Assembly (NCBI GenBank): GCA_007129945.1
Contig: SKUN01000087.1
Coordinates: 21,985 to 85,984 of the forward strand
Length of the DNA stretch: 64,000 bases
Origin: Bacteroidales bacterium
GTDB taxonomy: Bacteria; Bacteroidota; Bacteroidia; Bacteroidales; UBA7960
Direction of reading: 5' to 3'
Both the position numbers and the translations under genes were made by a program. Shown here piece after piece: positions 19,968 to 34,980 of this stretch; the stretch's first letter is position 1, and each line of letters begins with the position of its first letter. The notes under the pieces are model-generated. The model had not been told where the DNA came from and searched no databases. It saw only the letters and a list, made by a program, of their open reading frames with translations.

Positions 19968-21056
19968 CTAACCATCATACGACGGATAATCCACAAAGCC
20001 TTTGGGACCTCCATGGTAAAATGTATCCTTATCAGGTTCCGCCAGGGGAAGTTCTTCCTTTAACCGGCGGACCAGGTCAGGATTGGATATATAAGGTTTG
20101 CCGAAAGCAATCAGATCGGCATGGCCCTGATCCAGCATCTGCCGTGCACTTTCCCCGCTGTGCCCTCCGCAGGAAACAAGGGTGCCGTTATAGCTATTTC
20201 TGTAATAAGGCACAATGGATTTTTTCTGACCGGAAAGCCGTTCTTCAGGGGTCATCATTTCACTCAGGTGGAGGTAAGCCAGGTCGTACTGGTTGAGCCT
20301 GTCGATGATATACCCATAGGTCTGCTCCGGTTGGCTGTCTGCCATTCCCGGTTTAACCGAACGTGGCGACAGGCGCAAACCCGTTCTTGAAGCAGGTGCA
20401 TATTTCAGTACCTCGTCGATCACTTCAAACAGGAAACGGGCCCGGTTTTCAACCGTGCCGCCATATTCATCCGTCCGTTGATTGGTCCCATCCATAATGA
20501 ACTGATCAATCAGGTAGGCGTGTGCCCCGTGGATCTCCACCCCGTCAAAACCAGCCGTCATGGCGTTTTTTGCAGCCATTCCAAAATCCCGGATGGTGGC
20601 CCTGATCTCTGCGGCCGAAATTGGACGGGAGGACTCGTAGGGCAAGCGCCCTTCGGGTGTAAACACCTCCCCCTGCGGACAAACGGAGGAAGCCGCCACC
20701 GGTGCTTGCTGATCCGGCTGCAATAAAGGATGCGAATACGGCCCCACGTGCCATAGCTGCAGGAATATTTTACCCCCTGCTTCATGAACTTTTTCCGTGA
20801 CCAAACGCCATCCCTCAATCTGTTCAGCAGTATAGCAACCCGGCGTACCGGTGTATCCGAATGCCTGCTGAGATATCTGGCTGCCCTCTGCAATGATCAA
20901 TCCGGCGGAAGCCCGCTGCACATAATATTTCGCAATGAGGTCATTTGCCCTGAGTGAGGGTTCCGTGGCGCGGCGTCTTGTCATGGGTGCCATCACTACC
21001 CTGTTCGCCAGCATCAATTCGCCTGATTTAAATGGCTCAAAAAGTCTGTGCATCAT
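19968..21056 (-). CDS. Old Yellow Enzyme-family NADH:flavin oxidoreductase / alkene reductase
   Basis: 362 aa. N-terminal ...LANRVVMAPMTR and GFDGVEIHGAHAYLIDQF are typical of the OYE family. Confidence 0.85.
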   Translation of the reverse strand: MMHRLFEPFKSGELMLANRVVMAPMTRRRATEPSLRANDLIAKYYVQRASAGLIIAEGSQISQQAFGYTGTPGCYTAEQIEGWRLVTEKVHEAGGKIFLQLWHVGPYSHPLLQPDQQAPVAASSVCPQGEVFTPEGRLPYESSRPISAAEIRATIRDFGMAAKNAMTAGFDGVEIHGAHAYLIDQFIMDGTNQRTDEYGGTVENRARFLFEVIDEVLKYAPASRTGLRLSPRSVKPGMADSQPEQTYGYIIDRLNQYDLAYLHLSEMMTPEERLSGQKKSIVPYYRNSYNGTLVSCGGHSGESARQMLDQGHADLIAFGKPYISNPDLVRRLKEELPLAEPDKDTFYHGGPKGFVDYPSYDG

Positions 21057-21104
21057 TAATTCAGATTAATATTCACAACATCCGTTGTCTTTTCGGAAAA
21101 TTTG

Positions 21105-21112
21105 TACATTTG
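21105..21112 (+). promoter_or_regulatory. Candidate -7 box TACATTTG driving the asnA leader
   Basis: Perfect TAnnTTTG. Its end (21112) is 28 nt upstream of the leader ATG. The octamer is identical to the one before the his leader. Confidence 0.5.
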
Positions 21113-21140
21113 ATCTGTTGCAATAAATAAACAACCGATC

Positions 21141-21188
21141 ATGGCCCGGTTTTTCCTCAACAATAATAACAATAACTGTCCACCTTAA
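21141..21188 (+). promoter_or_regulatory. Asn-rich leader peptide ORF (MARFFLNNNNNNCPP*)
   Basis: Six consecutive Asn codons at 21159-21176. It is followed by a terminator and then asnA. Confidence 0.7.
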
Positions 21189-21224
21189 CAACAGGCGGTT
21201 GCTTTGTTATGCCCGATATTTTAC

Positions 21225-21252
21225 AGCCCGCCTTTTGGCGGGCTTTTTTTTT
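21225..21252 (+). terminator. Attenuator terminator upstream of asnA
   Basis: AGCCCGCC-TTTT-GGCGGGCT followed by a 9-T run. It lies 25 nt before the asnA ATG. Confidence 0.8.
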
Positions 21253-21277
21253 GCACACCCCGCAAATCCGATTCACC

Positions 21278-22288
21278 ATGGCAAAAGCCAAAAATATCCT
21301 GGAAACAGAAAAAGCAATAGAAGCGGTCAAACAAACATTTGAGCAGCAACTATCAAAAAACCTGAACCTGAATAAAGTTTCTGCCCCGATCGCGGTGCTG
21401 GAACACACCGGCTTAAATGACGAATTGAACGGAGTGGAAAGGCCGGTTTCTTTCAGGATCAAGGCGTTGCAAAACCAGCGGGCTGTGATCGTTCACTCAC
21501 TAGCCAAATGGAAGAGACTGAGGCTGAAAGAACTCGAGATAAACCGCGGCCAGGGCATCCTGACCGACATGAAGGCTTTACGGCCTGATGAAGACCTCTC
21601 TTCCATTCACTCAATATTTGTGGATCAATGGGACTGGGAAAAAACCATCTCCCCCGCAGACCGTAACCTGACATACCTGAAAGCCACCGTAGTTCAGATC
21701 TACGAAGCCATCAAGACAACTGAAGACAGTATATGCCTGTCAGAACCGGACATCAGGCCATTGTTGCCCGATCAGATCACCTTTATTCACGCGGAAGAAT
21801 TGTTACAGCGGGATCCCCTGTTGACTCCGAAAGATAGAGAAAAAAGGATCTGTAAGGAATATGGCGCTGTTTTCATTATTGGTATCGGAGCCCCCTTGTC
21901 AAACGGTAAACCCCACGACGGACGGGCCCCGGATTATGACGACTGGAGTTCAGAAAATGAAGAAGGCTTCACGGGACTCAACGGAGACATATTGTGCTGG
22001 CATCCCCTGCTGAAGAATGCATTTGAACTGTCATCCATGGGCATAAGGGTAGACCCGGGTGCATTAGACAGGCAGCTGGAATTACGGGCCTGCCAGGAAA
22101 AGGCCGCTTACCCCTTTCACCAGATGCTGCTCCGGGGAGCGCTTCCGGAAAGCATTGGTGGTGGCATTGGCCAGTCCAGAATGTGCATGCAGCTATTACA
22201 AAAGGCCCATATTGGCGAGGTTCAATCCGGCATCTGGCCGGAAAACGAAAGAGAACGACTCTGCAAACAGGGAATCTGTATTTTATAA
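21278..22288 (+). CDS. asnA: Aspartate--ammonia ligase (asparagine synthetase A)
   Basis: MAKAKNILETEKAIEAVKQTFEQQL..., 336 aa, class-II aaRS-like AsnA sequence. ATG 21278 is preferred to the track start at 21209, which would run through the terminator. Confidence 0.9.
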   Translation: MAKAKNILETEKAIEAVKQTFEQQLSKNLNLNKVSAPIAVLEHTGLNDELNGVERPVSFRIKALQNQRAVIVHSLAKWKRLRLKELEINRGQGILTDMKALRPDEDLSSIHSIFVDQWDWEKTISPADRNLTYLKATVVQIYEAIKTTEDSICLSEPDIRPLLPDQITFIHAEELLQRDPLLTPKDREKRICKEYGAVFIIGIGAPLSNGKPHDGRAPDYDDWSSENEEGFTGLNGDILCWHPLLKNAFELSSMGIRVDPGALDRQLELRACQEKAAYPFHQMLLRGALPESIGGGIGQSRMCMQLLQKAHIGEVQSGIWPENERERLCKQGICIL

Positions 22289-27465: not shown

Positions 27466-27534
27466 ATGGCACTTCATACCTGCACATATTATATCAGCTA
27501 TTATTACTTTTTTGTCAAACACAAAAGGGGCTGA
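27466..27534 (+). promoter_or_regulatory. Tyr/Phe-rich leader peptide ORF (MALHTCTYYISYYYFFVKHKRG*)
   Basis: 5 Tyr and 2 Phe codons lie within 9 codons (27487-27513). It is followed by a terminator directly abutting pheA. Confidence 0.65.
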
Positions 27535-27607: not shown

Positions 27608-28438
27608 ATGCAACAAACAATTGCCATACAGGGATGCAGGGGCTCTTTTCACGAAGAAGCAGCCATCAGATATTTCGGAAAAGATTTTAAACCGGAAGAG
27701 TGCACTGACTTTGATCATCTGATTAAAACGATGGAGTCGAAGAACGCAGATTACGGGATAATGGCCATCGAAAACTCCCTGGTGGGAAGTATTTTGAGAA
27801 ATCTTTCCATGCTTCGCGATTCATCTCTGCAGATTACCGGTGAGGTCTATATGCAAATCAGCCAGAACCTCATGGCATTACCCGGACAACACATAGGAGA
27901 CCTGGAGGAAGTACAGTCACATCCGATGGCCCTGCTCCAGACAGAAGTTTTTTTTAAAAAACATCCGGCCATCCGCCTGATGGAATCACATGATACTGCC
28001 GGGAGTGCAAGATTTATCGCCCGCAATCAATTAAAAAGAACAGGGGCCATCGGAAGTGCTGCGGCGGCCAGAATGTATGGATTGTCCATCCTTGCCAGTG
28101 ACATAGAAACTGAAAAAGAAAACTTCACCCGTTTTTTGGTGGTGGCCCCCCACCCCGAAACACCTGAACCCCGGCAAAAAGTGAAAGCCAGCGTGGCCTT
28201 TACCGCACTTCACCGACCCGGAGCTTTGTCAGAAATTCTGCAGCCCCTTTCAGAGGAAGGAGTCAACCTCACCATGCTGCAGTCTTTGCCCCTTCCGGGG
28301 AAAACCTGGGAATATATCTTCCACATGGATATGATTTTTGACAATCCGGAAAGAGCAAGAAAAACCATAGGAGTATTCGGAAGTAAGTTAAACAATGTAT
28401 GGGTCATGGGGGTATACCCGTTAGCAGAAACAAGATAA
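27608..28438 (+). CDS. pheA: Prephenate dehydratase (PDT plus ACT domain, no chorismate mutase domain)
   Basis: 276 aa. MQQTIAIQGCRGSFHEEAA...MAIENSLVGSI... and a C-terminal ACT-like region. Confidence 0.9.
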   Translation: MQQTIAIQGCRGSFHEEAAIRYFGKDFKPEECTDFDHLIKTMESKNADYGIMAIENSLVGSILRNLSMLRDSSLQITGEVYMQISQNLMALPGQHIGDLEEVQSHPMALLQTEVFFKKHPAIRLMESHDTAGSARFIARNQLKRTGAIGSAAAARMYGLSILASDIETEKENFTRFLVVAPHPETPEPRQKVKASVAFTALHRPGALSEILQPLSEEGVNLTMLQSLPLPGKTWEYIFHMDMIFDNPERARKTIGVFGSKLNNVWVMGVYPLAETR

Positions 28439-34619: not shown

Positions 34620-34676
34620 ATGATTTATTCAATCCACCATATGCACCATCATACAACCCCCCGCAAAGGGTGTTGA
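34620..34676 (+). promoter_or_regulatory. His-rich leader peptide ORF 1 (MIYSIHHMHHHTTPRKGC*)
   Basis: 5 His codons lie within 6 codons (34635-34652). Confidence 0.7.
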
Positions 34677-34711
34677 ACGGTGCTGTCGTGGATTTTTCAT
34701 AATTCCAATTA

Positions 34712-34750
34712 GCAGAAAGCCCCGGGAAACACCCGGGGCTTTCTGCTTTT
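34712..34750 (+). terminator. His attenuator terminator 1
   Basis: Perfect 15-bp stem GCAGAAAGCCCCGGG / CCCGGGGCTTTCTGC, loop AAACA, followed by TTTT. Confidence 0.85.
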
Positions 34751-34840: not shown

Positions 34841-34921
34841 ATGATCCTGACCCATCAAACCCATCATATACATCATCTGCGCCAGAGGCGGCGGACCGGG
34901 TCGGGTATGATAAGTAGTTAA
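34841..34921 (+). promoter_or_regulatory. His-rich leader peptide ORF 2 (MILTHQTHHIHHLRQRRRTGSGMISS*)
   Basis: 5 His codons lie within 8 codons (34853-34876). Confidence 0.6.
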
Positions 34922-34944: not shown

Positions 34945-34980
34945 AAAGGGACCCGCCGCTTCAGGCAGGTCCCTTTTTTT
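34945..34980 (+). terminator. His attenuator terminator 2
   Basis: AAAGGGACC...GGTCCCTTT outer stem with an inner GCC/GGC, then 7 T. It lies 22 nt before the hisG ATG. Confidence 0.8.

Follow-up and report, generated by a model that had tools for sequence, protein, structure and literature searches.

Leader-peptide attenuation is known for a narrow range of amino acids, namely Trp, His, Phe, Leu, Thr and Ile/Val, to which Cys and Pro-related cases have recently been added. Control of asnA, the gene for aspartate--ammonia ligase, is to our knowledge known mainly through AsnC of Escherichia coli, a DNA-binding regulator of the Lrp family that is encoded divergently from asnA and makes it asparagine-responsive. 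The present analysis concerns a short open reading frame (ORF) with six consecutive Asn codons, followed by an intrinsic terminator, directly upstream of asnA in 64,000 nucleotides from a Bacteroidales bacterium (GenBank assembly GCA_007129945.1, contig SKUN01000087.1, positions 21,985 to 85,984), a contig that originates from a metagenome of Kulunda soda-lake sediment; this whole stretch is referred to as the window, and positions are counted from its first letter. Judged from its sequence and from modelled folds, the element is very probably a transcription attenuator of the ribosome-mediated (leader-peptide) type, through which expression of asnA would depend on how much charged tRNA-Asn is available.

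With its six Asn codons in succession the asnA leader resembles hisL, which has seven His codons, and its 15 residues and the Pro before its stop codon resemble pheL. The asnA leader shares with trpL/trp (RF00513), hisL/his (RF00514), pheL/pheA (RF01859), thrL, leuL, ilvL and ivbL a leader of 14-16 codons with a cognate run and, as in the classical enterobacterial attenuators, there are four segments that would form the mutually exclusive helices 1:2, 2:3 and 3:4, with the terminator just before a biosynthetic gene. Unlike the classical enterobacterial attenuators, the asnA leader would sense Asn and target asnA, its host is, to judge from the named relatives and the promoter type, of the Bacteroidota type with a candidate -7 TAnnTTTG promoter, no Shine-Dalgarno sequence precedes the leader ORF, and the codons that would be sensed also serve as the 5' arm in the 1:2 helix. 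The locus is also unlike asnC-asnA of E. coli, in that the gene divergent from asnA in the window encodes an OYE-family reductase and no asnC adjoins.

Within the Bacteroidota, Bacteroid-trp (RF01692; Weinberg 2010, PMC2864571) is a leader-peptide attenuator for trp, and ilvE, hisG, aromatic and trp leaders are found in the transcriptome of Flavobacterium psychrophilum (PMC9723704 and its supplements). These leaders are of the same phylum and mechanism class as the asnA leader, and none is for asparagine or asnA. T-box leaders sense uncharged tRNA, and Asn-specific ones lie on asnS operons in Firmicutes (PMC2494555); they share with the asnA leader its proposed signal, in which tRNA charging controls terminator read-through before a gene for that amino acid, but a T-box binds tRNA directly and needs no translation. 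Polycysteine leaderless short ORFs are reported to be Cys-responsive attenuators in mycobacteria (bioRxiv 10.1101/834739), and these too recently extended codon-run leaders beyond the classical amino acids, although phylum, amino acid and architecture differ.

The region was compared with Rfam 15, by an E-value scan (E up to 10) of 20900-21500, which gave 34 matches, and by a gathering-level scan of the whole window. Nothing reached gathering level in the region or anywhere in the 64-kb window, and the sub-threshold matches, which included Trp_leader (23.6 bits against a gathering score of 41), Phe_leader (18.3 bits against 55), anti-hemB and suhB, were mostly driven by the terminator. Bacteroid-trp was absent from the region even at E up to 10; a T-box was not among the 34 matches, and none was seen at gathering level in the window, nor 5' of asnA in 20 mainly Firmicutes loci. 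In two Clostridiales loci, Clostridiales-1 RNA (RF01699; 78 and 131 bits) was observed directly 3' of asnA (L023, 3467-3623; L024, 3473-3641). Six homologous Asn-rich leaders of 24-36 aa matched no NCBIfam family at E up to 10. An Asn leader was absent from the literature searched in full text, though an earlier description may exist outside it; none is mentioned in Naville & Gautheret 2010, Korolev 2016, Weinberg 2010, Wels 2008, Ryan 2020 or Guerin 2021. A preliminary description of this DNA had raised the possibility of an undescribed cis-regulatory class. No catalogued equivalent for Asn or asnA was found, but the mechanism is classical, and the apparent novelty lies in Asn as the amino acid and asnA as the target, not in the class.

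The asnA leader and its alternative folds

The positions first reported for the box, the ORF, the Asn run, the hairpin, GGCGG, CCGCC and the distance to the asnA ATG were all found to be correct on re-reading, and the elements of the locus are as follows.

21105-21112, + strand: candidate Bacteroidota-type -7 promoter box TACATTTG, 28 nt 5' of the leader ATG
21141-21188, + strand: leader ORF of 15 codons, MARFFLNNNNNNCPP-stop, predicted to be translated; frame kept in 10 loci
21159-21176, + strand: run of six Asn codons, AAC AAT AAT AAC AAT AAC, the proposed stall codons under scarce Asn-tRNA
21166-21180, + strand: segment 1, the last four Asn codons (3-6) plus the Cys codon, paired as the 5' arm of 1:2 in the minimum free energy fold
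21180-21188, + strand: Pro-Pro-stop, CCA CCT TAA, the leader end, invariant in 10 of 10 family members
21193-21210, + strand: segment 2, AGGCGGTTGCTTTGTTAT, partner of segment 1 or, via 21193-21201, of the terminator 5' arm
21224-21233, + strand: segment 3, antiterminator partner of segment 2 in constrained folds, overlapping the terminator 5' arm
21225-21252, + strand: intrinsic terminator, stem AGCCCGCC/GGCGGGCT, loop TTTT, 9 T (from sequence, consensus scan and folding)
21278-22288, + strand: asnA, aspartate--ammonia ligase (TIGR00669 equivalog), the proposed regulated gene

The leader reads ATG GCC CGG TTT TTC CTC AAC AAT AAT AAC AAT AAC TGT CCA CCT TAA, and segment 2 begins 5 nt past its stop codon, within the footprint of a terminating ribosome. 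The terminator hairpin AGCCCGCC-TTTT-GGCGGGCT occupies 21225-21244 with 8 pairs, 7 of them G-C by the consensus scan, and runs into nine T (21244-21252), the first of which doubles as the last base of the 3' arm. Because the gene 5' of the leader (the OYE-family reductase, 19968-21056) is transcribed divergently, the terminator belongs to the 5' leader of asnA and not to the upstream gene. The identity of asnA is given by TIGR00669 (E 2e-120, 402 bits against a cut-off of 293), and the 25 nt between the T run and its ATG at 21278 hold no promoter-like box. A public gene call (P0001, 359 aa, 21209-22288) places the asnA start at the ATG at 21209; this start was rejected, as the extension would cross the terminator. 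The ten closest AsnA homologues (P0002-P0011) have 322-345 aa, compared with the 359 aa of that call, and in L081, a homologous locus, the corresponding upstream reading frame is out of frame with asnA. From the sequence, 21278 is most likely the true start.

The (AAY)6 run was found once in the 64 kb, both strands counted, with 1.6e-4 occurrences expected from trinucleotide frequencies, and runs of at least five Asn codons appeared in 0 of 100 first-order Markov simulations. There is next to no likelihood that the ORF and the hairpin adjoin by chance: AT-rich intergenic DNA can yield Asn codons but nothing further, the window has a G+C content of 50%, at which the above expectation holds, and many loci have kept the feature, as described below.

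Left unconstrained, 21120-21260 folded at -35.9 kcal/mol (z = -2.97) with the terminator, or 3:4 helix (-17.8 kcal/mol), included. This fold also contained a 15-bp 1:2 helix of about -17 to -18 kcal/mol, in which 21166-21180, comprising Asn codons 3-6 and the Cys codon, pairs with 21194-21210; this anti-antiterminator is an addition to the model first proposed. Ribosomes were represented by masks with an assumed footprint of +14 nt from the first A-site base. To model formation of the 2:3 helix, transcripts were used that end at position 21232 or 21236 and so stop short of the terminator 3' arm. The three states expected of an attenuator were obtained in the truncated transcripts. When the ribosome was masked at any Asn codon, the best fold was the 2:3 antiterminator at -11.0 kcal/mol (transcript ending at 21236); when it was masked at the stop codon, through 21200, the 2:3 antiterminator could not form; and with no ribosome the 1:2 helix formed. 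The preliminary description had paired GGCGG (21194-21198) with CCGCC (21228-21232), and this pairing is part of a longer predicted helix of 9 pairs and a bulge between 21193-21201 and 21224-21233. Similar energies have been quoted for the helices of the trp leader in E. coli. Taken together, the computations yielded a leader ORF, cognate codons, a terminator, an antiterminator exclusive of it and a 1:2 helix, and the logic first suggested for this locus, with an Asn leader, competition between antiterminator and terminator, and occlusion from the stop codon, is borne out by the constrained folds and by conservation in related asnA loci.

In the mechanism that we infer, which includes translation of the leader, stalling and an actual response to Asn, transcription would start a few bases past the -7 box and a ribosome would load on the 15-codon leader. 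With Asn plentiful, the ribosome would pass the six Asn codons and sit at Pro-Pro-stop, from which release is probably slow, covering AGGCGG (21193-21198) and leaving the terminator 5' arm free; the 3:4 hairpin and U tract would then form, and transcription would end about 25 nt before asnA. With Asn-tRNA scarce, the ribosome would stall within 21159-21176 and cover segment 1 but not segment 2, which would form the 2:3 helix with the terminator 5' arm while the 3' arm is still to be transcribed, and the polymerase would enter asnA. If the leader were untranslated, segments 1 and 2 would pair over 15 bp and the terminator would form. By analogy, the Pro-Pro-stop is probably a brake that holds the terminating ribosome over segment 2, because termination after proline is generally known to be slow; in E. 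coli, Pro is the last residue of pheL and ivbL and comes just past the regulatory codons in hisL and ilvL.

Conservation of the leader in closely related asnA loci

Among species-representative genomes the nearest AsnA was only 60% identical. Nine further loci with AsnA proteins 65-79% identical were found via metagenome and protein-based look-ups, and together with the window they make up an alignment of 10 loci. The leader element was common to 9 of 9 further loci, the nine homologous peptides being MSPFFFNNNNNNCPP, MTQFFHNNNNNNCPP, MTQFIINNNNNNGPP, MTQFFINNNNNNCPP, MTQFFDNNNNNNFPP, MTQFFIHNNNNNCPP, MLKGFFINNNNNNCPP, MMAFFFNNNNNNCPP and MIALYIINNNNNNCPP, each followed by a stop codon and ending in five or six Asn, then Cys, Gly or Phe, and Pro-Pro-stop. 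The leader has 15 codons in 8 of the 10 loci and 16 in the other two (L167 and L170), insertions and deletions are of whole codons, and codons 2-6 vary freely while start and stop remain in frame throughout. Mean pairwise identities across the alignment were as follows.

Asn run: 95.8%
Cys-Pro-Pro-stop: 90.4%
Segment 2: 97.8%
Each terminator arm: 95.6%
Promoter-to-ATG region: 40.9%
Leader codons 1-6: 63.2%
Linker, stop to segment 2: 50.3%
Spacer, segments 2 to 3: 43.3%
Terminator loop: 52.2%
T tract to asnA: 41.5%

The functional blocks are therefore 90-98% identical, compared with 41-63% for the spacers. Pairing was kept at 98.7% for the 1:2 and 3:4 helices and at 90% for 2:3, and the cells of segment 1 were 96-100% paired.

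The Pro-Pro codons are identical (CCA CCT) in all 10 sequences though the residue before them is Cys, Gly or Phe, a pattern that points to selection acting on how the ribosome behaves as it terminates, on the RNA, or on the two together. The invariance of Pro-Pro-stop, together with the Pro runs that follow the Asn codons in the second units of other loci (see below), could also be taken to mean that the leader senses general translation stress, or proline or EF-P status, and not asparagine specifically. This is highly unlikely, because a ribosome held at Pro-Pro-stop would cover segment 2 and promote termination, not induction; furthermore, the Asn run and the linkage to asnA are the conserved common feature, and many distant leaders have no Pro-Pro.

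The upstream neighbours vary across the family, from the OYE reductase to hisIE, an HD protein and a chorismate-binding enzyme, and because they differ between loci it can be said that the leader element travels with asnA. This bears on the view that the short ORF and terminator are an independent small gene or small RNA and that asnA has a separate promoter. A promoter, a short transcript and a strong terminator could indeed amount to an autonomous unit of about 130 nt, and terminated leader RNAs can act in trans in other bacteria (rnTrpL). However, only 23-33 nt lie between the T run and asnA across the family (27 nt for L167, taking 1028 as its probable ATG), and no TAnnTTTG box occurs there; the unit stays with asnA through the changes of neighbour, is absent before asnA in the non-Bacteroidota loci, and is found nowhere else in the window. 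A free-standing small gene is thus extremely unlikely, and the unit is better read as an attenuator of asnA.

The candidate promoter box at 21105-21112 was proposed from the sequence. The motif TANNTTTG is not enriched across the window (42 found against 33.9 expected), and the box was dropped as stand-alone evidence; it carries weight only because it recurs in the close homologues. There, TAnnTTTG lies 28-38 nt 5' of the leader ATG in 8 of 10, with a distance of 62 nt in L168 and no box in L165, and in several distant loci it lies 17-22 nt 5' of the leader ATG. In two family members (L082, at about 1331-1352, and L166, at about 831-853) a G+C-rich inverted repeat, GTCCGGTCAC...GACCGGGC, was observed in the interval from the -7 box to the leader ATG; neither the window nor any other member has it.

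Asn-rich leaders at distant Bacteroidota asnA loci

Different Asn-rich leaders with terminators were found before asnA in Salinimicrobium, Flavobacterium, metagenome-assembled genomes of Flavobacteriales and of Bacteroidales/Bacteroidia, and Hymenobacter busanensis; cultured carriers include Hymenobacter busanensis (L171), with a G+C content of 58%, and Salinimicrobium flavum KCTC 42585 (L002). One design that recurs combines dispersed Asn codons, as in MMFFNNNNNFNNNNLYKTGLWKSFVV-stop, with a G-rich block in the 3' end of the ORF (GGAAGGCUAUU or GGAGG) that matches the terminator 5' arm. Two designs can be proposed, a short one ending in N5-6-x-Pro-Pro-stop and a longer one with dispersed Asn codons and the antiterminator inside the ORF. 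Seven loci of the Flavobacteriia type (L002, L006, L007, L009, L021, L083 and L121) carry tandem pairs of differing Asn leader-terminator units 150-400 nt 5' of asnA, in which the first unit has a long leader with dispersed Asn, whereas the leader of the second is as a rule short and in many cases has Pro downstream of its Asn codons (NNNNNRPPP, NNHDPP, NNYP-stop). The window carries the short type only.

To define Asn enrichment, 168 asnA loci were surveyed for stop-free windows of 12 codons with at least 6 Asn, no more than 350 nt upstream. Twenty of the 168 passed this threshold, all of them among the loci identified as of the Bacteroidota type, and Asn was the top or tied-top residue in 20 of 20. 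The remaining 148 showed no such enrichment and mostly reached only 2-3 Asn.

In 28 units, the strongest duplex that the terminator 5' arm can form with the interval from leader ATG to terminator was determined and compared with dinucleotide shuffles. The partner of the terminator arm lay from -25 to +19 nt relative to the stop codon in most units, and the best duplex beat the shuffles (p of at most 0.034) in 20 of 28. Partner and terminator co-vary between loci, the pairs being GGCGG/CCGCC, GGAGGG/CCCUCC, CCGGAGG/CCUCCGG, GGAAGGCU/AGCCUUCC, CAGAGAAGG/CCUUCUCUG and GGUGAACAGG/CCCGUUCAUC. In a swap test of 14 units, the matched pairs summed to -150.4 kcal/mol compared with a permuted mean of -104.5 kcal/mol, and 0 of 20,000 permutations were as good. 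These data indicate that the segment after the Asn codons tracks the terminator sequence of its own locus. In mask folding, a ribosome stalled at Asn left 67-100% of the terminator arm paired upstream in 24 of 24 units, and with a ribosome at the stop codon 0-50% of the arm was so paired, 0 in most of the 24. A 1:2 helix was not predicted for most of the dispersed-Asn leaders and is specific to the family of the window; most dispersed-Asn leaders are accordingly predicted by the folds to read through if untranslated.

The distant loci also bear on the question of whether the Asn codons are read at all. It could be supposed that the terminator and the helices are controlled by an RNA-binding protein or a small molecule and that (AAY)6 is an RNA motif and not a set of read codons, either an A-R-N repeat as bound by Hfq-like proteins or merely the 5' arm of 1:2. 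The Asn stretch is conserved at the nucleotide level, third positions included, and pairs with segment 2, which indicates a constraint on the RNA. Against this stand the in-frame ATG and stop in 10 of 10 close loci, with length changes of whole codons and free variation of codons 2-6, and the distant loci, where the RNA sequences differ and the dispersed Asn codons nevertheless keep one frame with start and stop. In addition, His and Tyr/Phe leaders of like build precede hisG and pheA in the window, and Bacteroidota are reported to have no Hfq. An RNA motif that is not translated is consequently most improbable, and ribosome-mediated attenuation is preferred.

It should be noted that several observations weigh against an Asn attenuator at this locus and across the phylum. 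In the full-length RNA the terminator was the thermodynamic winner under any ribosome mask, so that only folds truncated before the 3' arm are informative and the antiterminator would work only kinetically, as in the classical attenuators. The masks themselves depend on an assumed footprint, only 5-6 contiguous G-C pairs are present in the 2:3 helix, and the shuffle test of the window leader alone, as a single sequence, was weak (p = 0.084). The Asn run and the terminator are co-conserved, but there were no compensatory base changes in the 10-member family, whose helices are invariant, and because these helices never vary the covariation argument rests on the comparison between families. Among the distant units, L004, L009 and the first unit of L007 were weak (p = 0.06-0.13). 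In the second units of L002 (2330-2434, MKYKTTTNINNNRPPPEGEG...) and L007 (2329-2436, MKTNNRNNLNNHDPPTGK...) the ORF crosses the terminator hairpin and a good antiterminator was not found (p = 0.19 and 0.50, respectively); if these two units are functional, the polyproline stretch, and not the stop codon, may set the point at which the ribosome waits. Finally, no such Asn leader was found 5' of asnA in Chitinophaga, Sphingobacterium, L169 and a few others. On balance, the evidence tilts somewhat towards an undescribed family of Asn-sensing attenuators that controls asnA and is widespread but not universal in Bacteroidota, with two designs that often occur in tandem and a Pro-Pro-stop brake.

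Other candidate leader peptides in the window and the biology of asnA control

A scan of the window for hairpins with T runs revealed, beyond the terminator of the Asn leader, two more terminators just 5' of genes, and three further leader ORFs lie upstream of pheA and hisG.

27466-27534, + strand: Tyr/Phe-rich leader MALHTCTYYISYYYFFVKHKRG-stop, preceding pheA
34620-34676, + strand: His leader 1, MIYSIHHMHHHTTPRKGC-stop, terminator at about 34711-34750
34841-34921, + strand: His leader 2, MILTHQTHHIHHLRQRRRTGSGMISS-stop, terminator at 34946-34980

The strong terminator of the Tyr/Phe leader, GAGCCCCGCC-AATA-GCGGGGCT and a T run to 27604, ends 3 nt before the gene at 27608, in the order pheA (prephenate dehydratase)-tyrA-DAHP synthase-aroE-aroA-aroC, and AGGGGCU at the leader stop codon matches the 5' arm of this terminator. 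The unit is likely an aromatic-amino-acid attenuator. The tandem His leaders, each with its own terminator, lie 5' of hisG (35003)-hisD-hisC/B. Neither the Tyr/Phe leader nor either His leader had an Rfam match. Because the Tyr/Phe and His leaders gave the same picture as the Asn leader when folded with ribosome masks, the organism appears to use leader-peptide attenuation routinely.

If the proposed attenuation of asnA is true, Asn would join the small set of amino acids sensed by leader peptides, and the element would be a compact Asn-responsive switch for genetic work in Bacteroidota. It would also correct asnA gene calls that cross their own terminator, and the tandem leaders and the invariant Pro-Pro-stop raise the question of how the basal level of an attenuator depends on the time that a ribosome dwells at the stop codon. 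Altogether, a conserved Asn attenuator would reveal how asparagine synthesis is regulated in a large and poorly studied phylum.

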